This document shows, piece by piece, positions 138 to 58,373 of a DNA stretch of 64,000 nucleotides. Numbering within the stretch: position 1 is the stretch's first letter; every line of letters begins with the position of its first letter. The DNA comes from a virus (lineage: Duplodnaviria > Caudoviricetes): IMG/VR virus record IMGVR_UViG_3300046318_000318, one strand, 5' to 3'. Under the pieces are notes generated by a model. That model saw only the letters and a list, made by a program, of their open reading frames with translations. It ran no database searches and was not told the DNA's origin. Made by a program: the position numbers and the translations under genes.

Positions 138-180
138 TTGAACTCCTTGTGATTTACTCAACTAAAGTAAATGTTACCAA

Positions 181-1818: not shown

Positions 1819-1836
1819 GTTACATTCCTTTGTTGG

Positions 1837-3063: not shown

Positions 3064-3130
3064 AAGTTCCTCTTTTTAAAAGTTGATTAAGCTCTTTGAG
3101 ACAGAGCGGTCAATTAAAGTATGTGTGACT
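3061..3130 (-). promoter_or_regulatory. Promoter-like motif, variant class (TCACACATA-CTTTAA-TTGACC), and leader of the 1837-3063 gene
   Basis: Shares the TCA..-N6-TTGA core with copies at 3291, 12817, 19351 and 58337; leader contains hairpin GCTCT-N7-AGAGC. Confidence 0.5.
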
Positions 3131-3151
3131 AACGATAGATACAAACAGAAC

Positions 3152-3198
3152 AAAAAAAAAATAACACCCCCGGCCTGTAAGGGCTAGGGGTGTTAATT
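3152..3198. terminator. Intrinsic terminator, repeated CACCC..GGCC/GGCT..GGGTG family
   Basis: GC-rich hairpin with a long T tract on the minus strand; nearly identical to 18839-18883. Confidence 0.8.
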
Positions 3199-3208
3199 TA
3201 CGCCTCGA

Positions 3209-3223
3209 TCACGCTCCAGCCAT
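3209..3223 (-). pseudogene. 4-codon mini-ORF (MAGA*) in an otherwise complete expression cassette; probable deleted-gene remnant
   Basis: TAAGGAGATAATC-ATG GCT GGA GCG TGA, followed about 15 nt later by the terminator. Confidence 0.5.
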
Positions 3224-3306
3224 GATTATCTCCTTAACTGATAGTGTCGTAGAAAGAACGACTTAAACTACAGCGATAGCTCAAATAGAATATATGTGAT
3301 TGAAAT
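3221..3306 (-). promoter_or_regulatory. Conserved putative early promoter + hairpin leader + RBS, copy A
   Basis: TCACATATA-TTCTAT-TTGA-GC-TATCG-CTGTA-GTTTAA-[GTCGT-N7-ACGAC]-ACTATCAGT-TAAGGAGATA-ATC-ATG; collinear with copies B and C. Confidence 0.7.
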
Positions 3307-3332
3307 TATTTACAAGAACTTATTTAGAAAAA

Positions 3333-3363
3333 AGATACACACAGCCTCATGGCTGTGTGTATT
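3333..3363. terminator. Hairpin terminator downstream of nrdB
   Basis: ATACACACAGCC-TCAT-GGCTGTGTGTAT flanked by A/T tracts. Confidence 0.7.
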
Positions 3364-3371
3364 TTAATCTA

Positions 3372-4502
3372 TCAGAAGTCAAACTCCATAGCCCCAGCTG
3401 GAACATCATGAGTATTCATACCCAGTAGATACCCACCTAAACGTTCTTCCTGAGCAGCACCTTGAATACCATCAATAGTAATCCAATCAGCTGTAAAGGC
3501 CAAAGGTAGTTTCTTAGGAATATCAAACTCAGGTTGGATGCCAAAGAAACTGTAAACTTCACCTGCGTAATAACAGACTTGTTGGCAAAGTTTCTCAGCT
3601 GTCAGACCAGATACTTCTCTTCCATTACGGAACAGAGTCTTATTAACCCAATCCAGTTCTGTCTGTATCACAGCTTTGATCATCTCAGCTATCTGTGTGC
3701 GACACTGATTAAAAGCCATCAGACCTTTAGAAGTACGCATCATGGCATCAAGGATGATCATATCACCTTTAGAGTGAATATGATATTCATCCTGACAGAT
3801 TTTCTGCACAGCTTTGGCAAATGGAATATATCTACCTGCTTCACCGTACGAGAAAGTCACTGTAAAGCTTGCCATGAACTGGATACGTTCCAGACACAAA
3901 AGAGCAGCTACATACATAAAGACCACGTTGTAGACTTCCTGACTGTTTCTATCCAGTTGGTTAAGAGCCAGTTTATGAGAGACCTCATAAGCTTTTTCAA
4001 GAACTGCGTTGATAACAGACATTCTTTCAAACGAAGGCTTTAGGGCCAGGATATCTCTCATGACCTTATCAGGATCATCAAAAGCATTCTTGACCATCTC
4101 GCTGTATGTCAAAGCATGCACTTGCTCATTGTCACCCACACGCTGCCAATATGACCACAGAGTCGTATCGCTGGTAAAGTTAGCTCCAATACCGGAGATA
4201 CCCTTACTCACCACACTGTCAGCTTCCCATTGCCAAGCAATAGTATCCAACATGATCTCGTAATCTGTGCGAGGGCAAGTCTTAAACTCTAACAAGCAAG
4301 ATTGGAAATCGAATTCCATCTCATCCCAGTCCTGAGCTTTGAGTTTCTTATACAGATCTCTCAGCTCAGGTAACTGTACATTGATAGAGTCTGTCAATCC
4401 AGCATCTTCACCAAGTACAAGCTCAGTGCCGATATAGTCTTTCTTTTCATTGTTGAAAATCTTACTAGAATAACTCATACTCACCTTTTTTAAAGTTTGC
4501 AA
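3372..4502 (-). CDS. nrdB: Ribonucleotide reductase class Ia, beta subunit
   Basis: Di-iron ligands and radical Tyr motifs: WEADS, NEQVHALTY, LERIQFMASF, QDEYHIH; adjacent to nrdA. Confidence 0.95.
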   Translation of the reverse strand: MQTLKKVSMSYSSKIFNNEKKDYIGTELVLGEDAGLTDSINVQLPELRDLYKKLKAQDWDEMEFDFQSCLLEFKTCPRTDYEIMLDTIAWQWEADSVVSKGISGIGANFTSDTTLWSYWQRVGDNEQVHALTYSEMVKNAFDDPDKVMRDILALKPSFERMSVINAVLEKAYEVSHKLALNQLDRNSQEVYNVVFMYVAALLCLERIQFMASFTVTFSYGEAGRYIPFAKAVQKICQDEYHIHSKGDMIILDAMMRTSKGLMAFNQCRTQIAEMIKAVIQTELDWVNKTLFRNGREVSGLTAEKLCQQVCYYAGEVYSFFGIQPEFDIPKKLPLAFTADWITIDGIQGAAQEERLGGYLLGMNTHDVPAGAMEFDF

Positions 4503-6934
4503 CTATCGCCGCAGTTCTCTTCCACAGCCATCTCTTGAACTTCCCCGGAACCATCTTTGCTGTTGGTGAGTGTGTTACTGTAATACTTAGACTTAACCCC
4601 ATACTTAATCATGGTAAAGTATTCAGTCAGAATCTGTTTATCACTGAGCATCACATTCTTAGATCTGTCTTTATAGGTATCCACGCTGATAGACTGATCA
4701 GTGAACTTTTGCATAACAGCATAAGCTTTGATCATATCCACACCAGGGATATCATAACCGATCTCGTACTTATCACCCAACAGATCGCTGTCAGTAGCTA
4801 CCCAATCCACTGTGTTGTTCTCATCAGACTTCTTCAAAGACAAAGCGCGGATAGGATAAGGACCGTTAGGCACACCTGAAGCTTTAGATGAGGATTCAGT
4901 AGGCATCAGGTTTATCAGACAGCTAAAACGAATACCGCCGTTTTTCACTATATCTGAACGAAGAGCTTCCCAATCATACTGAAGATCCACGGTAATCAAC
5001 TCATCTACAGCTTTCTTATAGCTATCAATAGGCAACCATCCATTAGCCCATTTTGTTTTATGGATCCAAGGAGCATTACCTTTTTCAATACCTAATTCAA
5101 GAGCTGCTCTAATGACAAAGTAAGCATGGCGTTCAGAGATACGATGAATCTCATTACGACCTTCAAGTGTACTATACTTAAGACCTTTACGAGCAAGTAG
5201 TGTAGCCAGACCAATGTGACCGACACCAGCATTCAAACGACTCTTAGCAGTGAATCCAATATGCGGCAAAGCATAAGTAGACAGATGAATACATCTATCA
5301 ATCATTCTCAGAGCTAGTTTACAGGTTTTATGGTATTGTTCGTCTGTATGAATGTTAGGAAGAACAACAGCACCAAGTGAACACAATGCTACCTCTCCTG
5401 GAATTTCTTTACTAACTATATCACCCACCACATAGTTCTTATAGGTGTTGCTATTAGGCACTGAGAAGAACTCACCTTTTGTCAAACTACCTGCATAAGT
5501 CCTACCTCTACCAGTCACAGACACTTCAAGATTGTAAGGAAGCTTAACTATGTTACCGTTGGTCTGTGAGAATGAAATATGACCGTAATCACCAGTTCTG
5601 TACAGGTCTTGCACCGAGTTATAACCAGCTGTCGATTCGCAAACTTCCAAGCAGAGATTTGAGCTATGGATGGGTTCTTGAAAAGGAGTATGGCGATTAG
5701 CTTCTTCAATGTTGAAGTGATACAGAGTAGACACCTCTTCAAACTGTGTCAGCATAGTCAAACACAGATCACGAGCACTCACGTACTCTTTAACAAAGTT
5801 ATCATCCTCTTCATACTTCTTATACAAAGCCTCAAACTTCTGAATATCACCGCTGAACATAGCTGCGTGAAGATCAGGAGCTGTATAACAATTAAAACAA
5901 AACATTTGTTCATCGTCTCTTGCTTTTCTAGCAAAGAAACTATTAGTCATCACCGCAAAGTGTACATCACGATTGCGTTTGGCTTCAGGAGTCCTTGGGT
6001 TCTGAAGCATGATGAGATCTTTGGCTTCTTTTTCAAAGATGTCAAAGTAAAACGTAGCAGCCCCAGCACGACCTGCTTGCACACCTTTAATAGTGTTCTT
6101 AGCTGTAGTAGCGAAGTAAGGACGCTTGCCACCATGAGGGAACCTACCACCGCGTACAGGATCACCGATAGATCTCAGATTATGATGAGTACCAATGCCA
6201 GCAGAAGCAGCTGTCATCTTAGAAGCGATCATGTCACCACAATCGATAGACTCGTTGTTATCGGACACCTCGACGAGGCAACAACTGGCGTAGCCATTTA
6301 GAGGACTGCCTAAGTTCACATAGTTGGGTGTAGGCGCATTAAGACGATTCAGGCTAAACTCATCGTAGTATTCTTGCACCAACTTAAGCTTCTCTTGACT
6401 GTCTTCGATATCATCAGACAAGCGCATAGCCATACGCATGAACGTATATTGAGGAGTCTCATACCTGATACCAGATACCAGATTAGAAATGCTGTACTTG
6501 TGATGGATTTGTTTGATCTGGCTGTGTGCGTAGTTAAAGTCACGCTTATGGTCTATGATACTTTCAATCGCTTCAAACTCAGCATCTGTATAACCCATGT
6601 CAATCACCAATCCGGTCTTAATAAGATCTTCATTGATCTTCTTAACCGAAGGCATCTCATCACCATAGAGAGCTTTATGTAACCAAGCAGCATACAATCG
6701 ACCAGCCATCACGTTATGCGGCCAATCTTTCTTATACAAACAAGCGTTGATCAACTCTTTCTGAAGACTCTGGCTGTTTTCAATCTCTTTACAGTTACTC
6801 AGAGCATCAAGCACCACACCTGACCAATCCACGCGATCGCCTAAACTGTCAGTAGCCCATATAGCCCATTTGTTGAGTTTAGAGGGTGTATATTCTTCTT
6901 TAGTTCCATCTCGCTTGATGATATACTTGATCAT
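4490..6934 (-). CDS. nrdA: Ribonucleotide reductase class Ia, alpha subunit with N-terminal ATP cone
   Basis: IIKRDG ATP-cone start; PTP..NLG, ASCCL, SNLCLE, EVALC, LMPTESSS, KYY and C-terminal CGDSC motifs; long insertion between catalytic cysteines. Confidence 0.96.
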   Translation of the reverse strand: MIKYIIKRDGTKEEYTPSKLNKWAIWATDSLGDRVDWSGVVLDALSNCKEIENSQSLQKELINACLYKKDWPHNVMAGRLYAAWLHKALYGDEMPSVKKINEDLIKTGLVIDMGYTDAEFEAIESIIDHKRDFNYAHSQIKQIHHKYSISNLVSGIRYETPQYTFMRMAMRLSDDIEDSQEKLKLVQEYYDEFSLNRLNAPTPNYVNLGSPLNGYASCCLVEVSDNNESIDCGDMIASKMTAASAGIGTHHNLRSIGDPVRGGRFPHGGKRPYFATTAKNTIKGVQAGRAGAATFYFDIFEKEAKDLIMLQNPRTPEAKRNRDVHFAVMTNSFFARKARDDEQMFCFNCYTAPDLHAAMFSGDIQKFEALYKKYEEDDNFVKEYVSARDLCLTMLTQFEEVSTLYHFNIEEANRHTPFQEPIHSSNLCLEVCESTAGYNSVQDLYRTGDYGHISFSQTNGNIVKLPYNLEVSVTGRGRTYAGSLTKGEFFSVPNSNTYKNYVVGDIVSKEIPGEVALCSLGAVVLPNIHTDEQYHKTCKLALRMIDRCIHLSTYALPHIGFTAKSRLNAGVGHIGLATLLARKGLKYSTLEGRNEIHRISERHAYFVIRAALELGIEKGNAPWIHKTKWANGWLPIDSYKKAVDELITVDLQYDWEALRSDIVKNGGIRFSCLINLMPTESSSKASGVPNGPYPIRALSLKKSDENNTVDWVATDSDLLGDKYEIGYDIPGVDMIKAYAVMQKFTDQSISVDTYKDRSKNVMLSDKQILTEYFTMIKYGVKSKYYSNTLTNSKDGSGEVQEMAVEENCGDSCKL

Positions 6935-7041
6935 GAATGACTTCCTTATTAGGGTTAAATCTGTTAGTTTTCTCTAAGTATTTTGTACTGAGCCAAACTA
7001 TAAGTCTGCTAGTTATTTAGATATTCGAGGCAAAAAAAAAA

Positions 7042-7065
7042 GATACCAGGGATGTCCCTGGTATC
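7042..7065. terminator. Inverted-repeat terminator
   Basis: GATACCAGGGA-TG-TCCCTGGTATC next to a 10-nt A tract (T tract on the minus strand). Confidence 0.7.
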
Positions 7066-7070
7066 CTTAA

Positions 7071-7517
7071 TTAAGATTCTGTCGGAAAGTCATATACCAA
7101 GGTTTCATCCTGTTTAGATACCTCAGGTGCCTTAGGCGTGATCTTAGTAACTTTCAGATCGATAGGTTCACAAGGCTTAGTGATATGCTCATACAAAGCA
7201 CTCTCAAAGGCTGTTAGCATATTCTTAAACTGAGTCTTCAGTTTTTTATAGATAAAGATCCTCTGTTCTTTATCCCTAACGATAATAGTGAAGACATCAC
7301 TGGTAACGTTGGCTGTGACGATGCTGTAGATATTCTTACGCTTCAGAAACTTATGTTCAGCTGAGTTAACTTTGATGCTTCTCATCATACCTACAGACAC
7401 AGGCTGTTTGTCATCGTAAGAGATAGAGATAGACATCTGATCGATATTCTTAACAGAAGCTTGAAACAGATTGCTAAAGGCCATTAAGTTAAGACCGTGA
7501 GATTTAAGGATTTGCAT
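7071..7517 (-). CDS. Hypothetical protein
   Basis: 148-aa ORF between two terminators; no motif recognised. Confidence 0.65.
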   Translation of the reverse strand: MQILKSHGLNLMAFSNLFQASVKNIDQMSISISYDDKQPVSVGMMRSIKVNSAEHKFLKRKNIYSIVTANVTSDVFTIIVRDKEQRIFIYKKLKTQFKNMLTAFESALYEHITKPCEPIDLKVTKITPKAPEVSKQDETLVYDFPTES

Positions 7518-7580
7518 AATATTTTACTAAGGATGAATTGAGACGACTAATCTATATAACTTTAGTCTAAATAAAAAAGG

Positions 7581-7617
7581 GAAAAAAGAAAAGGACCCCC
7601 GGAAGGGTCCTTTTCTT
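7581..7617 (-). terminator. Terminator of the major capsid protein transcript
   Basis: AAGAAAAGGACCC-N6-GGGTCCTTTTCTT; U-rich tail on the minus strand. Confidence 0.8.
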
Positions 7618-7648
7618 CTATTAGAGGCAATATTACTATCGCCTAAAC

Positions 7649-9790
7649 TCAAACGAGTTTGTAGTTGATTTGCACTTTATTAAGTACAGCAGGTACGTTG
7701 TTCACAACGAAGGTCGTCATGATAGGCAGGTGTGTCACGAATGCGTAACGTGGCTGCACAACGGTCTCTTTGCTGTAGGTGTTACCACGGCTCAGATTAG
7801 CAGTCATCACCAACTCAGGACCCCAGATCATGTTGCCGAAGTTCAATGGGTTAGGAGCAGTGTTACGCTGCTCGTTGAACACACCGAAGGTCATGAAGAT
7901 CTTACCAGCAACACGGCTATCAAGGGTAGAGACGATGCGAACATCAAACTCACCACCCAACGTACGCAGGTCACCAGACACGTTCAAGTAACGAGCCAAC
8001 ACTGGATCTGTGCCGATGATCACGACTGGTACAGCAGAGATACCACCGCTCAGAGCGTCGGCAGCAGCCTTGTACTCGGAGTCACGATACATGCGGTAAG
8101 CGTAATCACGCAGCTTGTTCACCAGAGCAGCTTGCATGTCTTGAGCGCGTTCGAACGACTTGATGGAGTCCACCATGGTCGCCATATCCAGAGTTTCCTG
8201 GAAGTAGGTAGGACGCACAAAGAAACGACCCACACCCAACACGTCAGGACCTTCACCCAACACGTCAGCAGCATCCACATATTGAGCCAAGGTACCAGCA
8301 GCGTCGATCAGAGCAGAAACTGCTTCGTTAGACACGCGGATACGAGTAGCGCTGATCAGAGCTTGCACGTCGGTAGCGTCGACAGAAGCGTCGACCACAG
8401 CAGGATGCATAGCAGAGATAGGCGAACGCAATGGCACAGCGTACAGTTGCGTGAACTTGGTCACGTCGATCAACTGACCGCGTTGACGACGGTTGATGTT
8501 CGTGTAGAAAGCAGTCAGGTCGTAACCTTCAATGGTACCAGCGTTGACCACTGCGACCACAGGAGCGGCAGGAGCAACAGCTTGATCCAATTGCTGACCA
8601 GTAGAGTCCAGAATGACGTGAGTCTGCACAGCGTTACCGTAGATAGAAGTCTTACCGGTTTCGATGTTCACAGAACCAGTCAACTTCAGCTCAACGCGAG
8701 CAATCAGGTTACCAGTAACCACACCAGCCAGATCCACCAGAGCAGAACCGTCAGCTTGCTTGGTATCGCGGTTGATCAGAACGCTCGTGGTTTCGAAGTT
8801 CAGAGTCATCACGCGATAATTGTTTTGCGTGCTGTATGTGAAGTTAGCCAAAGGTAGGTTCGACACATTGAAGCGCAGAACGTCAGCACCGAACTTGACA
8901 TACACGTTCTTGAGGTTCAAGAAGGTGTCCAGAGTGTCGGTGTTGTCCATCACGCCAGTGGCCAGCAGAGCATCAGTTTGACCCACGGCGATCAGGTTCA
9001 GTTCTTTACCGATCTTCAGAGGAGCGGTGGTGATAGATTGACCTTCGACGATCACAGCAGCAGGAGCTACGACAGCAGGATCCACGAACTGAGCGGCGTT
9101 TTGAGGACGCACAGCTGGAATCACGCGGGTCTGTTCTTTCTTCAGGATCGAAGCATCGGCCACAGCACGGATGATGTTCTTCTTACCAAAATCACGGAAT
9201 GCGCCGTCGATGTTGTGTTGAGTTGCGTCAAACACAGTCATCAGATCCACGGTCACGCCAAAACCAACTTGGTCAGGAGTCAGAACCAGAGTAGGGAAGA
9301 AGGTTTCGCCAAACTCGTCTTGACGAGCAGACTGCATGTTGTAAGCGATCGAGTAGATCGAAGCATTGCGGTTCTCGCGCTCGTCATAAGCTTCCAGACC
9401 GAATGCACGCTCAGACATACCTTCAGCAGCACCCATGGTTTGCACAACCACAGCACCTTCCATAGCCACAGGGCTAGAGATGGTCTTGCGGCTCAGCAGA
9501 TGGCGTGGGTCAGCAGCGATCATACCGCCGATAGAACCAGCAGCGATTTGAGCGGGGGTGAGTTTGTAACCCAGACCCAGGTCAGCCACGATCGATTCGA
9601 TAGCGGTGCTCAGACCTTCATGTACATTGTTCAGTTCAGCCAATTGGAAGTCTTGTGCAGATTCCAGGGCAAACATGGTCTTGGTAGACTCAGGAGTAAC
9701 CATGCGACCACCTTCAACGGTGTTACGCAGATGCACCAGCAGTTGCTGAACTTGGGTTTTTTGTTGACCCGTGGATTTACCAAATTTCAT
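7649..9790 (-). CDS. Major capsid protein (phiKZ gp120-like)
   Basis: 713 aa; GLE|AYD-type maturation site, QDEFGETFFPT and IGTDP..ARYL motifs; strongly biased GC-rich codon usage; AAGGAA RBS; synteny with helicase. Confidence 0.9.
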   Translation of the reverse strand: MKFGKSTGQQKTQVQQLLVHLRNTVEGGRMVTPESTKTMFALESAQDFQLAELNNVHEGLSTAIESIVADLGLGYKLTPAQIAAGSIGGMIAADPRHLLSRKTISSPVAMEGAVVVQTMGAAEGMSERAFGLEAYDERENRNASIYSIAYNMQSARQDEFGETFFPTLVLTPDQVGFGVTVDLMTVFDATQHNIDGAFRDFGKKNIIRAVADASILKKEQTRVIPAVRPQNAAQFVDPAVVAPAAVIVEGQSITTAPLKIGKELNLIAVGQTDALLATGVMDNTDTLDTFLNLKNVYVKFGADVLRFNVSNLPLANFTYSTQNNYRVMTLNFETTSVLINRDTKQADGSALVDLAGVVTGNLIARVELKLTGSVNIETGKTSIYGNAVQTHVILDSTGQQLDQAVAPAAPVVAVVNAGTIEGYDLTAFYTNINRRQRGQLIDVTKFTQLYAVPLRSPISAMHPAVVDASVDATDVQALISATRIRVSNEAVSALIDAAGTLAQYVDAADVLGEGPDVLGVGRFFVRPTYFQETLDMATMVDSIKSFERAQDMQAALVNKLRDYAYRMYRDSEYKAAADALSGGISAVPVVIIGTDPVLARYLNVSGDLRTLGGEFDVRIVSTLDSRVAGKIFMTFGVFNEQRNTAPNPLNFGNMIWGPELVMTANLSRGNTYSKETVVQPRYAFVTHLPIMTTFVVNNVPAVLNKVQINYKLV

Positions 9791-9826
9791 TTCGAGTTCC
9801 TTAGTTGGTTTCAGAAAAGTTAACTG

Positions 9827-10438
9827 TCACAAAACGCTACCTTGAAGTTCTTTCAGGTAAACAGAATAAATGCCGAGGCTGGATGCTCTGCCGGACGACA
9901 TCATAGAATAGAACTGATCGACGCATTTTTTAGAAAAGTTAAATGCGCCTTTCTTGGTTTGGAGAGTATTGATAATACCCTCGTCGACGATAATGTAAAC
10001 GACGTGAGTGTCTTTTACGAATGTGTAAGTTTTAGACTCTATACCGAAAGCATCTTCAATCTCCACAACAGGCATTCCATCCTGCATTGTGGTTAGTCTA
10101 TTTCTCATGTATAGTTTATTTTCTTCCATACCAACTAAGGGTTGAACGGAATACTCCAGCTCTTTTAATTGCTCTGTGGTGAGATTTTGGAAATGACAAG
10201 ACAGTTTAAATCCATCGAACCAAAACAGATTCTTATTTCTGTATGTGGTGTATAAAGGACTAAAAGCCTCATCGACATAGGCCCAATCTCTCAGATCATT
10301 AAGCGATAGAACACCACGGACTTTACCGTAGTTTCTAAAATCCATAATATCTATTTTATTACGTATCAATATCTGATATATCCATCTGGGGATTGGACAC
10401 ACAACAGATGAATTCAAAAAAGGTATGTCGGTACTCAT
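9827..10438 (-). CDS. Conserved hypothetical protein (phiKZ gp119-like by position)
   Basis: Start moved from the ORF-track 10498 to ATG 10438, which has a GAGGT RBS; lies between helicase and capsid genes. Confidence 0.6.
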   Translation of the reverse strand: MSTDIPFLNSSVVCPIPRWIYQILIRNKIDIMDFRNYGKVRGVLSLNDLRDWAYVDEAFSPLYTTYRNKNLFWFDGFKLSCHFQNLTTEQLKELEYSVQPLVGMEENKLYMRNRLTTMQDGMPVVEIEDAFGIESKTYTFVKDTHVVYIIVDEGIINTLQTKKGAFNFSKKCVDQFYSMMSSGRASSLGIYSVYLKELQGSVL

Positions 10439-10522
10439 GGTTAAACCTCGGTGAAGATTTTTATCAGATAGGGCTATGTTATGTCTCGATCGTACCAAAC
10501 ACTTAAATAAGAAGATAAGTCC

Positions 10523-12061: not shown

Positions 12062-12063
12062 AC

Positions 12064-12108
12064 AAAAAAAAATAACACCCTGGCCTTTTGGGCTGGGGTG
12101 TTATTTTT
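12064..12108. terminator. Bidirectional terminator, repeated family
   Basis: CACCCTGGCCTTTTGGGCTGGGGTG core identical to 57639-57682; T tracts on both strands; sits between convergent genes. Confidence 0.85.
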
Positions 12109-12109
12109 A

Positions 12110-12751
12110 TCAGCAGAGCACAGGCTGCTGAGAAGCTTTGAACTTCTCACGCATAGCTTGTACTCGCTCTTCTAACGACTCCAGAATTTCTGGATGGCCC
12201 AGAAGAGTGTCCGTCATTACCTGACGAATTTCCATCAAAGCGTAATACGCTTGTTGGAAACCAACCACAGATGCTGCGTAAGCATCTGCTTCCAGCTCAA
12301 AACGTTGAACGGATTTTGTTAATCCAGCATTTTCAAGACGGAACATATGCTGGTCTTTGAGATGGCCAAACTCATGTTCCGTGATGAACCTCAGTGTCTC
12401 TTCGGTATAGAGACCTTTCATGGTCAATACCAGATCGACCTTACCGATCGACATGGTCATCCCACCACCGAAATTTTTAACAAGCTCTGTGAGGTTTGTC
12501 ACAAAGACTTTCCCTGTTACAGGATGTCTTACCATAGTGGTCAGCCAATACCAATTTGGCATCTCGACCCACTTCACTTTTCTCCCGTTAGGGAGCTTGG
12601 CGGTCTTGCACCACCAAGTGGTGCAGCAGATGGTCAGGACAAGCCTGACCACTTGACTCTCCTTCAACCGGTCCCCGAACAGGGACCAACCGGTGGTCAA
12701 AGCCACAGCCGTGAAGAAAGTAACGCCAAGTACCAAAGAAAACTGTTCCAT
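12110..12751 (-). CDS. Membrane-anchored zinc metallopeptidase-like protein (M48/HtpX-type zincin)
   Basis: HEFGH (HExxH) plus downstream ELEADAYA; hydrophobic N-terminus. True start is ATG 12751 after TAAGGAG, not 12769. Confidence 0.7.
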   Translation of the reverse strand: MEQFSLVLGVTFFTAVALTTGWSLFGDRLKESQVVRLVLTICCTTWWCKTAKLPNGRKVKWVEMPNWYWLTTMVRHPVTGKVFVTNLTELVKNFGGGMTMSIGKVDLVLTMKGLYTEETLRFITEHEFGHLKDQHMFRLENAGLTKSVQRFELEADAYAASVVGFQQAYYALMEIRQVMTDTLLGHPEILESLEERVQAMREKFKASQQPVLC

Positions 12752-12830
12752 AACTATCTCCTTAGTCACAAGTTCGAAAGATGTTTCGATTAAACTGTAA
12801 CGATAGTCAAGTTAAGTATATGTGACCAAA
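12749..12830 (-). promoter_or_regulatory. Conserved putative early promoter + hairpin leader + RBS, copy B
   Basis: TCACATATA-CTTAAC-TTGA-C-TATCG-TTACA-GTTTAA-[TCGAAA-CATC-TTTCGA]-ACTTGTGAC-TAAGGAGATA-GTT-ATG. Confidence 0.7.
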
Positions 12831-12896
12831 ATACTTTATAAGGATATCTAGTTAACCTGGATATCTTTTGACTATAAACCTTAAGGACTTTACAAT

Positions 12897-13820
12897 ATGA
12901 ACGGTAAACTATATCAAGAAGAACAAAGTACAGCTTCTTCTAATGGTAAAGAGTACGATCTAAATATTCTATTTAAGAGAATTAAGAATAAACAATCTAT
13001 AGACATACCTATTGATAAACTCATATGGGTGTTAGAATATACAGTTATAGACGAACTAAGAGTTAAAAACGCTGATGTCTCAATTCCTATATTGATTTAC
13101 AATGACAAAAAAGATGGATATGTGACTATAGACGGAGCGCACAGACTGACCAAAGCTTTTAGATTAAAGATGAAAGTTATACCTGGTGTGATGTTAAGTG
13201 ATGAGGATATGGAAGCAGCTGAGATAAATAAAAAGAAAATAGCTTTGCTATCCGATAGTAATAATGTTTGGCAAATAGATTTTGGTCCTTCTTACACACC
13301 CAAAGAGATGTTAGAACTGGGTGTTTTTGAAGGTAAGTATGTCAACAACGTGAAAGGCATACCAGCTGACTGGAAGAAAAGTGATAAAGTATTAGGCTCT
13401 GATGATGAACCTGATCCCAGTGTTAATAAGTACGGAGTTAAATCAAGACAACCTTTATCAGTTTGGAAAAAGAACGATTGGATAAAAACAGACCCTAACG
13501 GATGGTTCGCTTGGTACTGTAATTATTATCTAGGTAGAAGACTAGGTGAAGAAGATGAATGGCAGATCAAACGCTGGAGAAGTTTTGTAGCTAGACATCA
13601 GGCTCAGATCAAAGCAGATCCCAAAGGACATCTTAAAGACAGACGCTTAGCTCAAAAGCAAGGTTTGTTACAATGGGCGTGGGATTGGGAACAGAACTTC
13701 ACTGATAAGAACGTAACTATCAACGCTAAAAGAATAGCTAAGTCTGCTGGCGCTAAGCTAGATAAAGAAGAACCAGCTTTAGAAAATATGATTCTGCCTG
13801 CTTTTGCCAGGTGGATTTAA
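12897..13820 (+). CDS. ParB/Srx-like N-terminal domain fused to a conserved domain of unknown function
   Basis: PILI...TIDGAHRLTKA (ParB-like); TPKEMLELGVFEGKY...DPNGWFAWYCNYYLGRR...QIKRW second domain; C-terminal ALE...W. Confidence 0.6.
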   Translation: MNGKLYQEEQSTASSNGKEYDLNILFKRIKNKQSIDIPIDKLIWVLEYTVIDELRVKNADVSIPILIYNDKKDGYVTIDGAHRLTKAFRLKMKVIPGVMLSDEDMEAAEINKKKIALLSDSNNVWQIDFGPSYTPKEMLELGVFEGKYVNNVKGIPADWKKSDKVLGSDDEPDPSVNKYGVKSRQPLSVWKKNDWIKTDPNGWFAWYCNYYLGRRLGEEDEWQIKRWRSFVARHQAQIKADPKGHLKDRRLAQKQGLLQWAWDWEQNFTDKNVTINAKRIAKSAGAKLDKEEPALENMILPAFARWI

Positions 13821-13874
13821 ATATCAAATAGATCATATGCTCTCACCCTTTTCCATAACACGTAAGGTTTACAA

Positions 13875-14399
13875 ATGGCTAACGTTTTAAATTTCTCTAA
13901 AGTAACTGCACTGCCTGTTACTTTCAGTCCTTCCACTCTGTACCTTATTCCAGGTACCCTACCTGATGAGATGCATGTATATGTGTCTGATTCTACCGGT
14001 ACTTCTGTTAAGAAGATAATCGACAGAGATGACATCATCGGTCTGATTAACACCACAGCTCCCGCTGACAACATTGTCGGCATCATTAATTGCTTTGGTT
14101 CTAATGAGGTTGTTGCTACTGGTAATTACGTTGGGTTTTTAAATGCTCATAAAGTCTTTACCTTTGATAAAGTACGTGTGAGTCTTCGCACCCATAGCGC
14201 AGATGCTGATATTAACTTCACTCTTGAATCCAATATGGATCCAGCTTTTGCAGTAGGTACTTTACTAGCAGGTAATAAAACAGCTGAGTTAACAGGTCTT
14301 AACTACACCACGACTCTCAATGAGACTATCACTGTCTCTATAGCAAGCACAACCAATACCACAGGTAAAGGTTTGATAGCTCTTTTGATTAAATCATAA
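13875..14399 (+). CDS. Putative virion fibre/decoration protein
   Basis: N-terminal motif shared with the 30008-30436 and 30496-31080 products; beta-rich C-terminus. Confidence 0.5.
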   Translation: MANVLNFSKVTALPVTFSPSTLYLIPGTLPDEMHVYVSDSTGTSVKKIIDRDDIIGLINTTAPADNIVGIINCFGSNEVVATGNYVGFLNAHKVFTFDKVRVSLRTHSADADINFTLESNMDPAFAVGTLLAGNKTAELTGLNYTTTLNETITVSIASTTNTTGKGLIALLIKS

Positions 14400-14411
14400 T
14401 CAGACATAAAC

Positions 14412-14443
14412 TCCTATCTAGCTCCCTAGGGAGCTAGATAGGA
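14412..14443. repeat. Perfect 32-bp palindrome between convergent genes (terminator-like)
   Basis: TCCTATCTAGCTCCCTAGGGAGCTAGATAGGA equals its own reverse complement. Confidence 0.9.
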
Positions 14444-14455
14444 TTATGCTGTTAT

Positions 14456-14869
14456 TTAAAACGGTGGGTTGCTGTTCTGATGAGCGCGACGCATCAATTC
14501 ACTGAAAGAGATTTTGGCTCCATTCGAAGAACTATCTTGTTTGATAGCTTGACTAACAGGCGTCTGGATCTTGCTAGGTGGTACTTGCACGTATTCAGAA
14601 TCAGGCAATACTTTAGTTTCTTTGACCAAAGTCTTTACCTTGGGTTCTTTACGAGCCAGATCTTTAGCTGTTCGAGTAGGGGCTTTAGTGACCTCTACTT
14701 TAATAGCTTTTTTAGGGACTTTAGCAGCTGCTCCTAGTTTAGCAGCAGCTTTGACCACAGCTTTTTTCACAGCCGCTTTAGCAGCAGCTTTACTGATCTC
14801 ACTGATCATAGCTGCTTCGCTTACTTGTTTCTTAGCAGCTGGTTTAGCAATTTTCTTTGCGGTAGTCAT
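14456..14869 (-). CDS. Lys/Ala-rich histone H1-like basic protein
   Basis: AKKIAKPAAKK and KAAAKAAVKKAVVKAAAK runs in 137 aa. Confidence 0.55.
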   Translation of the reverse strand: MTTAKKIAKPAAKKQVSEAAMISEISKAAAKAAVKKAVVKAAAKLGAAAKVPKKAIKVEVTKAPTRTAKDLARKEPKVKTLVKETKVLPDSEYVQVPPSKIQTPVSQAIKQDSSSNGAKISFSELMRRAHQNSNPPF

Positions 14870-14870
14870 T

Positions 14871-15431
14871 TCATCTTCTCCTATAGGTGATGAAGTTATA
14901 TGTTAATAAGCCCTCACCTGTGAAGATAGGTGTTTGACTTTCCAGTTTAAAAAGATCATGAGGTACGGTAGGTACATAGACCGCATCCGTGAACATGTCT
15001 ACAAGATGTTGATGGTTCTTATAGATTTGTGTCAGATGTATAACATCTGCGTATTTAAATCCTTCATTGACAATCAGATCTCTACCGCCTATGATAAACA
15101 GCTTAGAGTCTTTACCCGTACGAGGGTTATTAGCAGTGAGTTTTAAAGCTTTGAACGCTTTGATGTATTCAACAGGATCACTTACTTTAAAAGTGAGTAA
15201 AGTGTTTACATTTTCATCTATGGGAATATCCCTAGATGTAACTATTGCATTTACACGATCTGGTAGAGATTTACCTATAGAGTCAAAGGTTTTTCTACCC
15301 ATCAAGACAGTTTCAAAAATAGTCATATCTTTGAAACGTTTGAGATCAGCAGATAGTTTCCAAGGGATCTTACCATCGATCCCTATAAGACCATCTACAT
15401 CCCTGGCGTAAATAAGTTCTACTGATGGCAT
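14871..15431 (-). CDS. folA: Dihydrofolate reductase
   Basis: GLIGIDGKIPWKLSADLKRFK, LMGRKTFDSIG, LPDRVN, FIIGG motifs; immediately downstream of thyA. Confidence 0.95.
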   Translation of the reverse strand: MPSVELIYARDVDGLIGIDGKIPWKLSADLKRFKDMTIFETVLMGRKTFDSIGKSLPDRVNAIVTSRDIPIDENVNTLLTFKVSDPVEYIKAFKALKLTANNPRTGKDSKLFIIGGRDLIVNEGFKYADVIHLTQIYKNHQHLVDMFTDAVYVPTVPHDLFKLESQTPIFTGEGLLTYNFITYRRR

Positions 15432-15432
15432 G

Positions 15433-15729
15433 TTAAGTAGCTACCGGGTAAGGTATGTGTGGATGTGGGTCGTATCCTTCCAGTTCAATATCTTCAGATT
15501 TGATCTTAAAGATATCTGTCTCGTCTGTTTTAAAGACAAGTCGTGGAAGAGATCTGGGCTCACGAGAGATTTGTTCATCTACCAAATGCAATTGATCTGT
15601 GTAGATATGTGTATCTCCAGTAGACCAAATGAACTCATTAGGTTCCATATCAACATGTCGGGCAATCAAATGCAACAGCAATGAATACTGAGCTATGTTG
15701 TAAGGGCTCCCTATAGGTGTATCGACTGA
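15433..15729 (-). CDS. thyA: Thymidylate synthase, exon 2
   Basis: SVDTPIGSPYNIAQY, GDTHIY, YPVA motifs; joins exon 1 in frame as QR|SVD after intron removal, giving 381 aa. Confidence 0.92.
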   Translation of the reverse strand, partial: SVDTPIGSPYNIAQYSLLLHLIARHVDMEPNEFIWSTGDTHIYTDQLHLVDEQISREPRSLPRLVFKTDETDIFKIKSEDIELEGYDPHPHIPYPVAT

Positions 15730-16861
15730 CATTAATTAACTTCGGTGTGGTAAAACCAATCTTTGTATTTATCCTTTTTAACCCTGTGTGTCACTAAACC
15801 TTGCGATATTTTGAAATATCTAGAAGCATCAGCACATGAGTTAAAAAGAATTCCACCTGCAAATACCTTACGAGTGTTTGTTGGTGGGATACCTATTCTG
15901 TTTTCCCTAAGTTTTCTTTTTGTTTCTTCAGTATGTTTTCTATTGAAGAAAGAATTCTTAGAACCGGTTCTTAAACGTTGACGTGCTCTGATTTTTTCAA
16001 TTTGTTCTTCAGAAAGTTTACAACCTTTGTTGTAGCTATGACCTTTATGCATTAAAGATATAAGCTTTCTGGTTTCAACTGAATGTTGTCTTCCAAACAT
16101 TCCATTAGCTGAACCATTTTTACCCCAAAGGTTTTTTCTTTCTAAAACAGACATTGACGCTATATTTTTAGCTTGTGTTTTGTTTCTTCTGTCTAATATG
16201 TCATCACGTTTTGGATGATTAGATAAAGAATTGCCAAATTTAGAATTTAAACTTATATTAGCCAGTAGGTTTTTATTCAGACCTGTGTATGACTTTATTA
16301 TAAGCTTTTCCTCTAATTGAAAAGCTTCTTCCCTAGAACTACACGGAATAGAGGAAACTTTATAATCAGTTCCTTCACACCATGCTTCTTGTAAACGCAG
16401 ATTATGGTGATTGTTTCTTTTCAACGACCTAAAATGAGTTCGAAGTCTTTTCTTTAAATTTGACGTACTACCTATATAAAACACACCTGTTTTTGTTAAT
16501 GTGAGTATATAAACACAAAAATCATTACTGTTCATATAGATTCCTCGTTAGGATTACCATATAATGAACACAGCACTGCTTTACATCTCTGTAAAGATAG
16601 ATCATATCACCACCTTCAGCCTTACCTGTTAAGGGTTCCCCGTTTCGAAGCGATTCACATCGGTTCTACGTCTTTCGACTGATCGTTGAACTTTCTCCAG
16701 TTTAAAGGAGCTTAGCTGCTGATTGTCTCTACCTACTAATTTTCAAACACGTTACGTATGTGTTTTCACACTCCGCTTTGGTTTAGTAGTCTAACAAGGG
16801 TTTCCAGCAATTAGAGGAATTTTCAAATAGGTATTTCTACCTATACAGCGCTCAGTTATTA
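15730..16861 (-). mobile_element. Group I self-splicing intron (IA-like) in thyA, 1132 nt
   Basis: P1: exon CAGCGU pairs with intron GCGCUG (U.G at the splice site). P10: ACUGA pairs with exon-2 UCAGU. Core elements AAUUGCUGGAAA, AAUCAGCAG, GAUCA/UGAUC (P7), UUCCUC/GGGGAA (P3). Terminal G at 15730. Confidence 0.92.
15732..16535 (-). CDS. Intron-encoded GIY-YIG homing endonuclease (I-TevI/I-BmoI-like)
   Basis: CVYILT...FYIGSTSNLKKR catalytic motif; NUMOD3-like repeats (RQHSVETRKLIS, RKHTEETKRKL); C-terminal HTH-like segment; GAGGA RBS. Confidence 0.92.
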   Translation of the reverse strand: MNSNDFCVYILTLTKTGVFYIGSTSNLKKRLRTHFRSLKRNNHHNLRLQEAWCEGTDYKVSSIPCSSREEAFQLEEKLIIKSYTGLNKNLLANISLNSKFGNSLSNHPKRDDILDRRNKTQAKNIASMSVLERKNLWGKNGSANGMFGRQHSVETRKLISLMHKGHSYNKGCKLSEEQIEKIRARQRLRTGSKNSFFNRKHTEETKRKLRENRIGIPPTNTRKVFAGGILFNSCADASRYFKISQGLVTHRVKKDKYKDWFYHTEVN

Positions 16862-17710
16862 ACGCTGGAACATAAGTAGGTTCAAACGCTTCTTACCACC
16901 TTCATTGAGAGCAGGTTGTACAAAGCATTGGAACATAACATGGCATGGTGCCAAAGCACCCATACCCAACAATACATTCAGATCAGGAGAAATCTTATTG
17001 TCAGGAATGAATTGTGGTAACCATGAGCTTACCACAAGACGTGAAGAATAAGGATTGTTTTTCAGTTCAGCCAGAAGAATACCTAATTGATCTACCTTAG
17101 AGACATAAGTCTTCTGAATGAAATCAGTCTCTGTGACGGGATCTGTTCCATCATCTTCTGCTTCTTTATAAGCAAGATATTCTTTATAAGCTTCTTTAAA
17201 AGCTTCTACTTTATCAGAAGGAATATCTTCGATAGGTGGTTTGTTTCTGAGAAGTTGGTGAATGTTACTCATCTCATCAGCAGGGGCATGGCGCCAGTTA
17301 AAGCCGTACAAAGGACCGATAGATCCGATACGCTCACTGATCTGTTCACGAAGTTTAGCCATGAGCATTTCATTACCGGCCATACTCTGACGATCTTCTT
17401 CTGATTCAAACTTAGACAAGAAATATTCCATGAACTTATCCACTGTTTTTTCAGTGACAGCCCAGTTATCCCAGATATGCACATTTGCTTCATTCAGCAA
17501 AGTGTTATCAATCTCACCAGCGATAAACCAAAGCAATTCTTCTTTCATACCTCGAAAGAAGATCTTACGAGTAGTGACCAAAGGAAAACCATCACTCATG
17601 TTGAATCGGACTTGTCTACCGAAGATAGATCGACGACCTACGCCGGTACGATCGGGATGATCATGTCCATTGTCACGGATATCCTTGAGGAGTTCTATAT
17701 AAGTCTTCAT
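16862..17710 (-). CDS. thyA: Thymidylate synthase, exon 1
   Basis: DRTGVG, FPLVTTRK, ELLWFIAG, GPLYG, LAPCH (catalytic Cys); ends at MFQR followed by the intronic TAA. Confidence 0.93.
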
Positions 17711-17716
17711 GGTGGT

Positions 17717-18040
17717 TTATATGTTTTTAAAGATGATGTAAGAACCAAGACTGATGATTATCCAAGACAACAACATCAGCCAATAAATCATTTTCTCTCT
17801 TTGGTCTAACAGATAGCTTATGTCATCTTTAAGATCCAAAAGCTGATTAAGATCAGCAAGTTGAGATTCAATTTCAACGATGTCTGATGTCAGAGCATCT
17901 ATTTTCTTGTAACTCTGATTGATTCTTGTGTCTATACGTTTGCTATCTTTACCAATAGCAGCTTTAAGACCAGCCATAGATCTCTGCAGAGATGTTACAT
18001 CTACACCCACGTCAGCTTTATAACGATGATGTCTGGACAT
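17717..18040 (-). CDS. Small coiled-coil protein with C-terminal transmembrane helix
   Basis: Heptad-like Leu/Ile pattern then IYWLMLLSWIIISLGSYIIF. Confidence 0.65.
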   Translation of the reverse strand: MSRHHRYKADVGVDVTSLQRSMAGLKAAIGKDSKRIDTRINQSYKKIDALTSDIVEIESQLADLNQLLDLKDDISYLLDQREKMIYWLMLLSWIIISLGSYIIFKNI

Positions 18041-18042
18041 AG

Positions 18043-18330
18043 TTAGTTAAAGTAAAGATTGACGACAAGAGCTGCAAAAATAGAACTTGTTATCGCCAGT
18101 GCAATAAGCATTCTTCTGACATTATCCAGCTGTTCCTGAAGAGCGTAGACGCTATTGCCCAATGATTCTAGTTTGAGGTTGGTACCTGCTTCAACAGTCG
18201 ACGCGTTGGTTTGGAGAATTATCAGCTTCGACTCCAGGTCTGTGATAGCTTTATTCAATTCTTCTTTACTAGCTGCTAAAGGTTTAGTTGTGGTGTTGCC
18301 GTTTGCTTCTTCAATAATGAGGTTTTCCAT
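18043..18330 (-). CDS. Small coiled-coil protein with C-terminal transmembrane helix
   Basis: Heptad pattern then MLIALAITSSIFAALVVNLYF; AAGGA RBS. Confidence 0.65.
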   Translation of the reverse strand: MENLIIEEANGNTTTKPLAASKEELNKAITDLESKLIILQTNASTVEAGTNLKLESLGNSVYALQEQLDNVRRMLIALAITSSIFAALVVNLYFN

Positions 18331-18340
18331 GATTGTTTCC

Positions 18341-18802
18341 TTAGGTTAAAAAACGTTTCCATTCATAAGGCATCCAGCATCTCTCTATGCCTTTAAACAT
18401 AGGAGCTATCTGCTCATGCTTATATCCAGCTAACCCTGTGCCTACCGCTGTGACAAAAAAAGTTTTGTCTTTGAGTATAGTGGTTACTATTCTAAAGGTC
18501 TCTACTCTTTTCTCTATTTCTTCTAGCGGTAGAGGTTGCAGCATATGTGACTTAGTAGGTAAGGCATAACAGTTACCCATTCTACCCTCACCTACACCGT
18601 AGATAGCTCCATAGTCTGTAGCAGCTTTAAGAGCAGCACCTTTACCATGTCTACCAGCTAGGTTAGAACCAAATACAAAAAGTATACTTGGGTAGAGGAT
18701 AATGTTGTTCTCAGGAAAGTAATATTTGACACCTTTTTCAATAGGTAGAAGTACAGTGTCATACTTCTTCATCATCTCAAAATCTATTTCAAAATTTGAC
18801 AT
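18341..18802 (-). CDS. Macro-domain-like protein (A1S_2505-type phage family)
   Basis: FVFGSNLAGRHGKGAA, YALPTK, FFVTAVGTGLAG motifs. Confidence 0.7.
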   Translation of the reverse strand: MSNFEIDFEMMKKYDTVLLPIEKGVKYYFPENNIILYPSILFVFGSNLAGRHGKGAALKAATDYGAIYGVGEGRMGNCYALPTKSHMLQPLPLEEIEKRVETFRIVTTILKDKTFFVTAVGTGLAGYKHEQIAPMFKGIERCWMPYEWKRFLT

Positions 18803-18838
18803 ATTTGTTTTCCATAATCAAAAAATGAAAGCTGTGAA

Positions 18839-18883
18839 TAAAAAAATAACACCCCCGGCCTGTGAGGGCTAGGGGTGTTATTT
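18839..18883. terminator. Intrinsic terminator, repeated family
   Basis: ATAACACCCCCGGCCTGTGAGGGCTAGGGGTGTTA, one base different from the 3161-3195 core. Confidence 0.85.
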
Positions 18884-18884
18884 A

Positions 18885-19283
18885 TCAAGCTTGATGTGTG
18901 ATCCAAGCTTGAAGAGCCTGACCCATGGCCAGCTCTTCAGCACGTCCTGATCTCACATCAGGGAACTTTACATGGACCATGAACCACTTGATCGTGGCTC
19001 CTTCGGGCAATGTGGTTGCCCCTTCGGGCAGTCGTGGTCCAGAATATTGACCAACAATGATTGTCTCATTGCTGGTCAGGTCCACGGTCACCCGTGCAGC
19101 GGGGATTTCCACCCCCAGCTGCTGAGAAAATACAGAAGCTGTGTCGGCATGACCGACACAGCTTTCCACCCCTACCTCCAAAAACTCCTTGACTTCAGCC
19201 GGAGTGATTTGGATCACTTTGATGTCGGCGATGAGCGCCGACACCATGTTGAGACTGAAAGCGTTGCAAATTTTAATTGCCAT
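18885..19283 (-). CDS. acrIII-1: DUF1874 / AcrIII-1-like ring nuclease (anti-type III CRISPR), STIV B116/YddF family
   Basis: NAFSLNM, VGHADTA (catalytic His), conserved Arg in ARV, and Q..GPRLPEG; order and spacing match SIRV1 gp29 as I recall it. Confidence 0.82.
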   Translation of the reverse strand: MAIKICNAFSLNMVSALIADIKVIQITPAEVKEFLEVGVESCVGHADTASVFSQQLGVEIPAARVTVDLTSNETIIVGQYSGPRLPEGATTLPEGATIKWFMVHVKFPDVRSGRAEELAMGQALQAWITHQA

Positions 19284-19366
19284 GAGTATCCCCTTAACCA
19301 GCAGTGTTACAGATGTGTAACTTAAACCACTAGCGATATCTCAAGTTAAGTTTATGTGATTGAAAT
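19281..19366 (-). promoter_or_regulatory. Conserved putative early promoter + hairpin leader + RBS, copy C
   Basis: TCACATAAA-CTTAAC-TTGA-GA-TATCG-CTAGTG-GTTTAA-[GTTACA-CATC-TGTAAC]-ACTGCTGGT-TAAGGGGATA-CTC-ATG. Confidence 0.7.
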
Positions 19367-19380
19367 ATTCTCTAAGGGAT

Positions 19381-19420
19381 ATAAGAGATATCCTACCCTT
19401 AAGGGTAGGATATCTCTTAT
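19381..19420. repeat. Perfect 40-bp palindrome at the end of the endolysin gene
   Basis: ATAAGAGATATCCTACCCTT-AAGGGTAGGATATCTCTTAT. Confidence 0.9.
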
Positions 19421-32437: not shown

Positions 32438-32445
32438 GGTGCTTA

Positions 32446-46509: not shown

Positions 46510-46518
46510 TTATATACC

Positions 46519-52872: not shown

Positions 52873-52879
52873 AATCTTT

Positions 52880-58298: not shown

Positions 58299-58348
58299 GA
58301 CACATTCCTTTAAAAAGTTGTTAAGGTCAAATAAAGTTTAAATGACTC
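58296..58348 (-). promoter_or_regulatory. Promoter-like motif, variant class (TCATTTAAA-CTTTAT-TTGACC)
   Basis: Resembles the 3120-3128 copy, including TTAA.CAACTTTT downstream. Confidence 0.4.
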
Positions 58349-58373
58349 AAATGTTTTATAAAACCTATACTAT

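Follow-up and report, generated by a model that had tools for sequence, protein, structure and literature searches.

Organisation of the cassettes

The stretch of DNA analysed here (the window, 64,000 nucleotides of the IMG/VR virus record IMGVR_UViG_3300046318_000318, Duplodnaviria; Caudoviricetes) carries on its minus strand three copies of a conserved element that places a promoter and a structured 5' leader ahead of a single accessory unit. The copies lie where the original prediction had located them, with the sequence blocks and the hairpins GUCGU/ACGAC, UCGAAA/UUUCGA and GUUACA/UGUAAC described there. The exact pattern TCACATAWA-N5-8-TTGA-N1-3-TATCG has three matches in the window and none in 100 dinucleotide shuffles, and a covariance model built on nine copies scores the three elements at 96–101 bits (E ~1e-16), with the next window match at 25 bits. 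The features of the three cassettes are listed below; promoter modules are scored with a position weight matrix (PWM), and ORF stands for open reading frame.

3335..3362, minus strand: terminator of the upstream nrdB, ~15 nt before the cassette 1 promoter module
3279..3320, minus strand: cassette 1 promoter module, 42-nt motif (PWM 49.9); predicted start at TTGA(G) near 3282
3221..3282, minus strand: cassette 1 structured 5' leader; outer helix UAUC/GAUA, bulge with the Shine-Dalgarno sequence, middle helix, UUUAA/A loop, apical GUCGU/ACGAC
3223-3221, minus strand: cassette 1 start codon AUG
3209..3223, minus strand: cassette 1 'empty' slot, four-codon remnant ORF MAGA*; the related contig G002 has a 112-aa DUF1874 gene here
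3152..3194, minus strand: cassette 1 terminator, shared family (AACACCCC...GGGGTGTT + T run)
12805..12846, minus strand: cassette 2 promoter module (PWM 44.9)
12749..12808, minus strand: cassette 2 structured 5' leader, apical UCGAAA/UUUCGA; its minimum free energy (MFE) fold is the three-helix rod
12110..12751, minus strand: cassette 2 cargo, 213-aa zincin (HEFGH) with hydrophobic N-terminal stretches
12064..12102, minus strand: cassette 2 terminator, shared family
19339..19380, minus strand: cassette 3 promoter module (PWM 42.5)
19281..19342, minus strand: cassette 3 structured 5' leader, apical GUUACA/UGUAAC; MFE -17.9 kcal/mol, z -2.3
18885..19283, minus strand: cassette 3 cargo, 132-aa DUF1874 / STIV B116-like (AcrIII-1 family) protein
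18840..18880, minus strand: cassette 3 terminator, 97.6% identical to the cassette 1 terminator over 41 nt

With the nrdB terminator, the cassette 1 promoter module makes up a composite terminator-promoter unit. As had been proposed, one terminator family closes all three cassettes, with AACACCCC...GGGGTGTT and a T run each time. The predicted cargo, namely an empty first slot, a zincin and an AcrIII-1-like protein, was likewise recovered. In the case of cassette 2, the HEFGH motif is accompanied by a weak Peptidase_M48 match (22.3 bits, cut-off 20.3). The cassette 3 product matches PF08960 (STIV_B116-like, 32.5 bits, cut-off 26), contains a GHADTA motif and has sequence matches in the PDB to AFV3-109 and SIRV1 gp29 (entries 2j6b, 2x4i and 6scf). 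AcrIII-1 (DUF1874) proteins are characterised by the PF08960 domain, a conserved GH..T motif and ring-nuclease activity on cyclic tetra-adenylate (cA4); by domain and motif, the cassette 3 cargo is a candidate member.

Three IMG/VR contigs were identified as relatives: G002 (120 kb), with ~90–94% identity to window positions 1-23682; G001 (113 kb), with ~70% identity to positions 52879-63998; and G003 (36 kb). A covariance-model scan accepting matches at E<=1e-4 returned 26 copies of the structured leader from the window, G001 and G002 combined, each in the orientation of the genes, and further copies were found in G003 (three) and in the metagenome contig L262 (one). The family thus comprises at least 30 copies, including the three window elements, 13, 10 and 3 in the three IMG/VR contigs and the one in the metagenome contig, and is much larger than the three elements first noticed. 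A loose leader pattern, GTTTAA-N-ACT-N-AAGGAGATA, gave mostly chance single matches in viral contigs, and only G003 was gained from it.

At least 19 of the 26 copies are followed by one ORF (4–229 codons) and then by a terminator-like hairpin with a T run, and about 11 of the 26 cassettes use the AACACCCC/GGGGTGTT terminator family or covarying variants of it. The cargo is unrelated between copies and usually consists of ORFans without a Pfam or PHROG family; the list includes two DUF1874 paralogs, a zincin, small hydrophobic peptides of 26–30 aa, an 18-aa micro-ORF and several ORFans. The suggestion that these units carry counter-defence genes is plausible for the DUF1874 gene only, most of the remaining cargo being ORFans. 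In G001, a repeat-protein family of at least eight paralogs starting with MTIVTN was observed, each paralog behind its own promoter-leader copy.

Members of this repeat family lie at 32207-33984, 46164-46790, 68411-68554, 73196-73684, 97185-97604 and 113104-end of G001 (tiles L046-L050). They contain ~23-aa HREDGPA..NG.K.W repeats resembling a MORN variant, with only a sub-threshold DUF6745 match, and each is closed by an ACACAGC/GCTGTGT terminator; truncations or partial duplications occur in some. Furthermore, the 18-codon micro-ORF (MEAYEIILTEEEWNFFFG / MEVHEITLTEVEWLFYFG; L047:6929-6985 in G001, L044:11890-11946 in G002) sits behind a variant of the structured leader, directly before a strong terminator, and is kept between the ~70% identical G001 and G002. 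It may encode a leader peptide or a micro-protein.

A covarying three-helix leader RNA

Taken from its 5' side inward, the leader begins with the outer helix UAUC/GAUA. A 6-nt bulge, UAAGGA(G), holds a strong Shine-Dalgarno sequence; the middle helix has 7 bp, most commonly in the form GCUGUAG/CUA-u-CAGC; and a near-invariant 5x1 internal loop, UUUAA/A, separates it from an apical hairpin of 5–7 bp whose loop contains U-C-U. The leader hairpin of the original prediction is real, paired and covarying, although it represents only the apical part of a three-helix leader that also contains the Shine-Dalgarno sequence. The TTGA...TATCG...GTTTAA blocks, which had been read as promoter, correspond instead to the 5' strands and the internal loop of this longer RNA structure.

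With more copies, the covariation proved strong. In the model-fitted alignment, 92% of the cells are paired and 14 of the 17 pairs have changed on both sides, values reached by none of 500 shuffles. A structure-blind MAFFT alignment of 27 copies gave a similar picture, with 87.9% of cells paired compared with 74.4% in shuffles, 14 of 17 pairs compensatory and again no shuffle among 500 reaching the observed values; partners slid by 1–3 columns paired at just 26–54%. Every one of the six apical pairs has compensatory changes, as do all but one of the seven middle pairs, and at least 12 different apical stem sequences occur. Conservation is highest at unpaired positions, with little or no variation in G-UUUAA, A-C-U and the loop U, whereas the helix sequences change freely. 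G-U pairs make up 59 of the 378 paired cells (16%), which assigns the structure to the sense strand and so to the transcript. Covariation also extends to the 5' strands of the outer and middle helices, which must then be part of the transcript, so that the start lies upstream of TATCG. MFE folding of single leaders recovered the same rod in four of six cases, with energies of -14 to -20 kcal/mol.

Several points weigh against this structural model. The folding energies of single leaders are modest (z -0.5 to -3.2), the MFE fold of the window leader at 3221 is not the rod, and RNAalifold favours another register for the lower helix. In addition, many copies are paralogs or orthologs, so the shuffle tests overstate their independence. 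The RNAalifold register was set aside in favour of the one described, which has more compensatory pairs; the two are not fully separable.

No Rfam 15 family matches the leader (best E on element 1, 4.3); in the Rfam scan of the window, a group I intron alone passes its gathering score. A literature search did not turn up any description of such a leader from jumbo phages. The leader is an undescribed and well-supported RNA motif.

The promoter module and the predicted transcript start

Among weaker covariance-model matches, the upstream half of the element recurs with quite different downstream sequence. The element consists of two modules, a ~42-nt phage-specific promoter and a ~58-nt 5' leader of one particular class. 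The promoter was described with a 42-nt PWM (consensus TCTTTTTGTAAAATATTTCAGTCACATATACTTTATTTGAGC), and its consensus can be written as cTTGTAAA-N9-TCACATATACTTTAYTTGAG. PWM matches number six in the window, 28 in G001 and 19 in G002, always on one strand and upstream of ORFs. The window matches outside the three cassettes are as follows.

3108..3149, minus strand: same promoter family with a different, shorter leader (PWM 32.9), ahead of a 408-aa ORF (1837-3063) and an RNA-polymerase-subunit-like ORF (181-1818)
58325..58366, minus strand: same promoter family with a short 'AAGGAA..GTCAUG' leader (PWM 40.2), ahead of ORF 57684-58298
156-197, window: same promoter family, weak match, with another leader

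The promoter motif was also found with other leaders in at least 10 further metagenome contigs. There, matches to a 19-nt promoter pattern are mostly noise, and the PWM filter leaves at least ~12 true relatives among the matches listed. No cultured phage model carrying the motif was found, and in 50 kb of FLC9 and 30 kb of phiKZ, two unrelated chimalliviruses, the PWM stays at background (best scores -6 and +2, respectively). The promoter appears to be common to a wider phage clade. The same 42-nt promoter, ending in TTGAGG, stands before unrelated leaders at L173:253-320 and also in L163, L178, L188, L205, L221, L236, L240 and L243. Several of these metagenome leaders open with a short hairpin, and one of them (GAGG-N6-CCUC + U run) resembles a promoter-proximal attenuator.

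The most conserved promoter positions are TATAYT and, six nucleotides later, TTGA, and the AT-rich core is centred ~10 nt upstream of the predicted start. Early promoters of jumbo phages have been described as AT-rich motifs of ~10 nt centred near -10, and the layout of TATAYT and TTGA matches these published promoters (PMC7598289; PMC8244752). Transcripts are predicted to start within TTGA(G). Of 48 non-redundant leaders of all classes, 29 have their first predicted helix beginning at T38 or G39 of TTGA, and no more than 17 do so at any other offset. No more than two free 5' nucleotides are left in 78% of leaders, compared with 38% of shuffles, and for the 31 leaders outside the structured class the figures are 23 observed and 10.7 expected. 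In the structured class, folding begins 0–4 nt from the predicted 5' end; the cassette 3 helix starts at the first predicted nucleotide. These folding results suggest that a 5'-terminal helix is a common property of transcripts from this promoter class.

In most leaders the first helix coincides exactly with the predicted start, and another reading would place the function of the inverted repeats in DNA, where extruded hairpins or cruciforms would take part in promoter recognition or escape. Hairpin promoters of this kind are used by the virion RNA polymerase of phage N4. We regard this as highly improbable here. The 16% G-U cells would become A-C mismatches on the other DNA strand and weak G-T pairs in DNA, the structure reaches ~58 nt downstream and takes in the Shine-Dalgarno sequence, and the virion polymerases of chimalliviruses are multisubunit enzymes, not of the N4 type.

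The source phage and the polymerase that reads the promoter

Megablast and blastn searches against 50,697 phage records found no similar DNA record. The window encodes a phiKZ-type major capsid protein whose nearest cultured counterpart is that of Burkholderia phage FLC9 (42% identity), and the capsid proteins of the Ralstonia phages RP12 and RP31 are ~40% identical to it. It also codes for phiKZ-type internal head proteins (phiKZ_IP), NrdA/B, a DnaB-like helicase and an RNA-polymerase-subunit-like protein. DNA of this phage is abundant in freshwater metagenomes and occurs in some 20 freshwater runs. In G001, a chimallin homolog (phiKZ gp54, E 2e-17) adjoins a homolog of gp55, a component of the non-virion RNA polymerase (nvRNAP), and homologs of gp71, gp73 and gp74 are present as well. 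Because of this chimallin/gp55 pair the clade is considered chimallivirus-like, and the window phage would accordingly be a member of an uncultured freshwater clade of nucleus-forming jumbo phages. The original assignment to a chimallivirus holds in this form, at the level of the clade; chimallin was seen in the ~70% identical relative G001 and not in the window itself, which counts against extending it directly to the window phage.

The promoter precedes genes of the transcription apparatus. A strong match (32.9) lies upstream of the gp71-74 nvRNAP operon of G001, marginal matches (13.8 and 16.0) lie upstream of its chimallin and gp55 homologs, and in the window the promoter stands ahead of the operon that ends in the RNA-polymerase-subunit-like gene. 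We therefore consider it most likely, from this genomic setting and the motif layout, that the motif is an early promoter used by the virion RNA polymerase; both the early timing and the use of this polymerase, as had been proposed for the cassettes, are plausible. Some observations weaken this assignment. The two marginal scores lie near the top shuffle score of 13.9 and could be due to chance, and the sequence of the region recovered in two metatranscriptome runs consists of assembled contigs that include no leader.

Moreover, TATAYT with a purine 7 nt downstream also fits a bacterial-type holoenzyme. The promoter could accordingly be read by the host sigma-70 holoenzyme, as in the true promoter-early-stem-loop elements (PeSLs) of T4-type phages, rather than by the virion RNA polymerase: the hexamer keeps the conserved T, A and T at -12, -11 and -7, and TTGTAA lies upstream. 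The phages RP12 and RP31 are also said to depend partly on the host polymerase. However, TTGTAA is just 15 nt from the -10-like hexamer, and a sigma-70 scan with spacers of 16–18 nt flags none of the elements. Sigma-70-like sites are depleted in the region, with 26 found in window positions 1-20000 and 44.4 +/- 6.8 expected from dinucleotide shuffles. The conservation of the promoter spans ~40 nt, which far exceeds the needs of sigma-70, and the motif precedes the nvRNAP and chimallin genes of a nucleus-forming phage (the chimallin match being marginal). Taken with these points, recognition by sigma-70 seems unlikely, and the virion polymerase is retained as the preferred reader.

Terminator-like hairpins are enriched over the same 20 kb (24 found, 13.0 +/- 3.4 expected). 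A Bacteroidota-type promoter (TTTG / TAnnTTTG), checked by eye, fitted poorly and was rejected, and a Bacteroidota-type host is unlikely because the Shine-Dalgarno sequences are strong.

Exchange of cargo between relatives

The clearest footprint of exchange is in slot 1, where G002 has a 112-aa DUF1874 gene and the window has the four-codon remnant; identity between the two breaks inside the leader and resumes at the terminator. The comparison indicates that the window slot has lost a DUF1874 gene. Furthermore, the window slot 1 leader differs at only two of 56 positions from a paralog, G2_84186 (at 84 kb in G002), and at 13 of 56 from its positional ortholog, which points to recombination between copies. 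At a second locus, G002 carries two cassettes (1.8 kb) between the terminator of a conserved gene and a conserved promoter, where G001 has 69 nt. A pair of orthologous slots, at 62.6 kb in G002 and 0.24 kb in G001, lies ahead of a syntenic block (at 62.9 kb and 0.7 kb, respectively) and contains unrelated cargo behind different apical stems. In the case of the zincin cassette, a 36% identical homolog with the same leader class occurs at a different locus of G001. Cargo thus differs at orthologous slots, in agreement with the proposed slot system. The differing cargo, the one recombinant leader and the presence of the zincin family in different slots bear out a modular arrangement analogous to PeSLs.

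The similarity of the upstream regions might instead be a relic of tandem or dispersed gene duplication, in which paralogs simply kept their upstream sequence and the module has no role in shuffling. The at least eight G001 copies that precede the MTIVTN repeat-protein family are what such a history would leave. Elsewhere, however, the copies precede unrelated cargo (DUF1874, zincin, small hydrophobic peptides, the micro-ORF and ORFans), and the recombination junctions fall within the modules, so that duplication alone is a very unlikely account of the family compared with exchange between modules.

Further differences from G002 were noted outside the cassettes. On the minus strand, the thymidylate synthase gene of the window (15732-17710) is split by a group I intron (RF00028, 67.4 bits, 16579-16871), as in T4 td, followed by a GIY-YIG/NUMOD3/I-TevI-type homing endonuclease ORF (15732-16535); G002 keeps the intron without the ~850-nt endonuclease segment. 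The DnaB-like helicase gene of G002 contains a group I intron (85 bits, L039:10262-10563) that is lacking in the window (~11685, gene 10523-12061, plus strand), with ~500 nt of extra DNA at the junction. Two other G002 insertions, neither containing an Rfam intron, measure ~1.0 kb at window ~5650 (nrdA; G002 17724-18728) and ~0.9 kb at window ~7570-7667 (end of the major capsid gene region; G002 14818-15708). In addition, the 652-aa product encoded at window positions 21167-23125 (minus strand) contains five FG-GAP repeats (PF14312, E 1.5e-42) and falls in no PHROG family, which is unusual in a jumbo phage.

Comparison with known systems

The closest known counterparts are the PeSLs of T4-type phages (Arbiol et al. 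2010, PMC2839356; Comeau et al. 2014, PMC4122927). Both are conserved composite motifs of ~100 nt that end in a Shine-Dalgarno sequence and start codon, stand mostly ahead of ORFans and sometimes between core genes, and have been proposed to recombine homologously while carrying their own promoter and terminator. In both, the motifs bound insertions, deletions or replacements of ORFans between close relatives, as observed here. A hallmark of PeSLs is the excised mini-circle carrying one chimeric motif. The differences lie in the parts. The PeSL promoter follows the sigma-70 consensus, whereas the promoter described here is phage-specific and fails the sigma-70 scan. The PeSL stem-loop is a G/C-rich terminator or attenuator in or beside the promoter; here it is a covarying three-helix 5' untranslated region (UTR) downstream of the predicted start, without a U tract, and the terminator is a separate 3' module, with upstream terminators again forming separate hairpins (e.g. 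3335-3362). The bearer in this case is a nucleus-forming jumbo phage. The system resembles PeSLs in how it works without being one itself, since its promoter is not sigma-70-like, its stem-loop is a transcribed leader and not a terminator, and its terminator stands apart at the 3' end.

The early promoters of phiKZ-like phages (PMC7598289; PMC8244752) are likewise multi-copy, phage-specific, AT-rich motifs near -10, relative here to a predicted start, and were also found bioinformatically upstream of operons that are early or, in our case, putatively early, with conserved upstream elements. Their sequence is unrelated, in line with the background PWM scores in phiKZ and FLC9. The 5' UTRs of phiKZ are typically 31–40 nt long, and a conserved structured leader is not reported in these studies. 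The phiKZ intrinsic terminator family (PMC10914365) is one motif reused many times in a chimallivirus genome, as is the terminator described here, which differs in its sequence (AACACCCC...GGGGTGTT-A-T run) and in being paired with a conserved 5' module to frame single-gene cassettes.

Stem-loops are among the features that shield bacterial mRNAs from RNase cleavage (PMC7509114). The ompA-type 5' stabiliser stem-loops, as cited there (Emory et al. 1992), similarly combine a helix near the 5' end (predicted in our case) with a strong ribosome-binding site downstream. In stabilisers of this type the helix starts no more than 2–4 nt from the 5' end and lengthens the half-life of the mRNA. Relative to that account, the leader described here differs in that the Shine-Dalgarno sequence is a bulge within the structure and in that the internal and apical loops are conserved in sequence. 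The undescribed part of the system is the conserved three-helix leader, together with an apparent rule that such transcripts begin with a helix.

Proposed mechanism and significance

We propose that the element is probably a portable expression module that combines an early promoter, a 5'-sealing leader and ends that serve as homology arms. The phage-specific promoter, most likely early and read by the virion polymerase, would start the transcript within TTGA(G). The three-helix rod would seal the 5' end against 5'-end-dependent decay and would leave the ribosome-binding site exposed; in the ompA case, protection comes from the helix at the very 5' end. The invariant loops of the rod would probably also bind a trans-acting factor. 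In the DNA, the conserved 5' module (~95 nt) and the 3' terminator (~45 nt) could act as homology arms, and homologous recombination between copies would then insert, delete or exchange cargo between core genes.

The pattern of conservation in the leader, with unpaired nucleotides most conserved and helices free to vary, suits a different emphasis, in which the leader would work mainly in cis, as an operator or a processing site and not as a stabiliser, and would switch translation for the whole set of cassette genes at once. The UUUAA/A and U-C-U loops would be read by a protein of the phage or the host, such as a RegA-like translational repressor, a ribosome-associated protein or an export/localisation factor; because the structure encloses the Shine-Dalgarno sequence, binding of such a factor would hide it. 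In the processing variant, RNase III would cut the ~20-bp rod, as at the early R sites of T7, and the rod-with-internal-loop geometry of those sites is similar to that of the leader. On the other hand, no candidate binding protein was identified, the rod has just 17 pairs broken by loops, and 5' sealing appears to be the common feature because a 5' helix also opens those leaders of this promoter class in which the loops are missing. A predominantly regulatory or processing role is a possible but somewhat doubtful alternative, and it is compatible with the portable, 5'-sealing module proposed above, the two not being mutually exclusive.

More speculatively, and in our estimate rather improbably, the leader could be an address tag on early mRNAs, with its invariant UUUAA/A and U-C-U loops read by a phage-encoded or ribosome-associated factor and its 5' helix needed, beyond any protection from decay, for initiation or release by the virion polymerase. 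Such a factor would select transcripts for privileged translation, timed shut-off or trafficking from the early phage compartment. If true, the plug-in accessory genes of nucleus-forming phages would share an RNA regulon coupled to their promoter.

With the portable expression module as the preferred reading, the PeSL idea that regulatory ends serve as recombination handles would extend from T4-type phages, which rely on the host polymerase, to jumbo phages that form a nucleus and have polymerases of their own. Promoter, structured leader and terminator together make up a small, portable expression unit; reused as it is for unrelated genes, including an AcrIII-1-like gene, it offers a template for gene expression from the genomes of jumbo phages. 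The leader RNA has candidate roles in mRNA stability or translation. Finally, the occurrence of a helix at the predicted +1 position would allow transcript starts to be predicted from sequence only, and may reflect a general rule for the early mRNAs of these phages.

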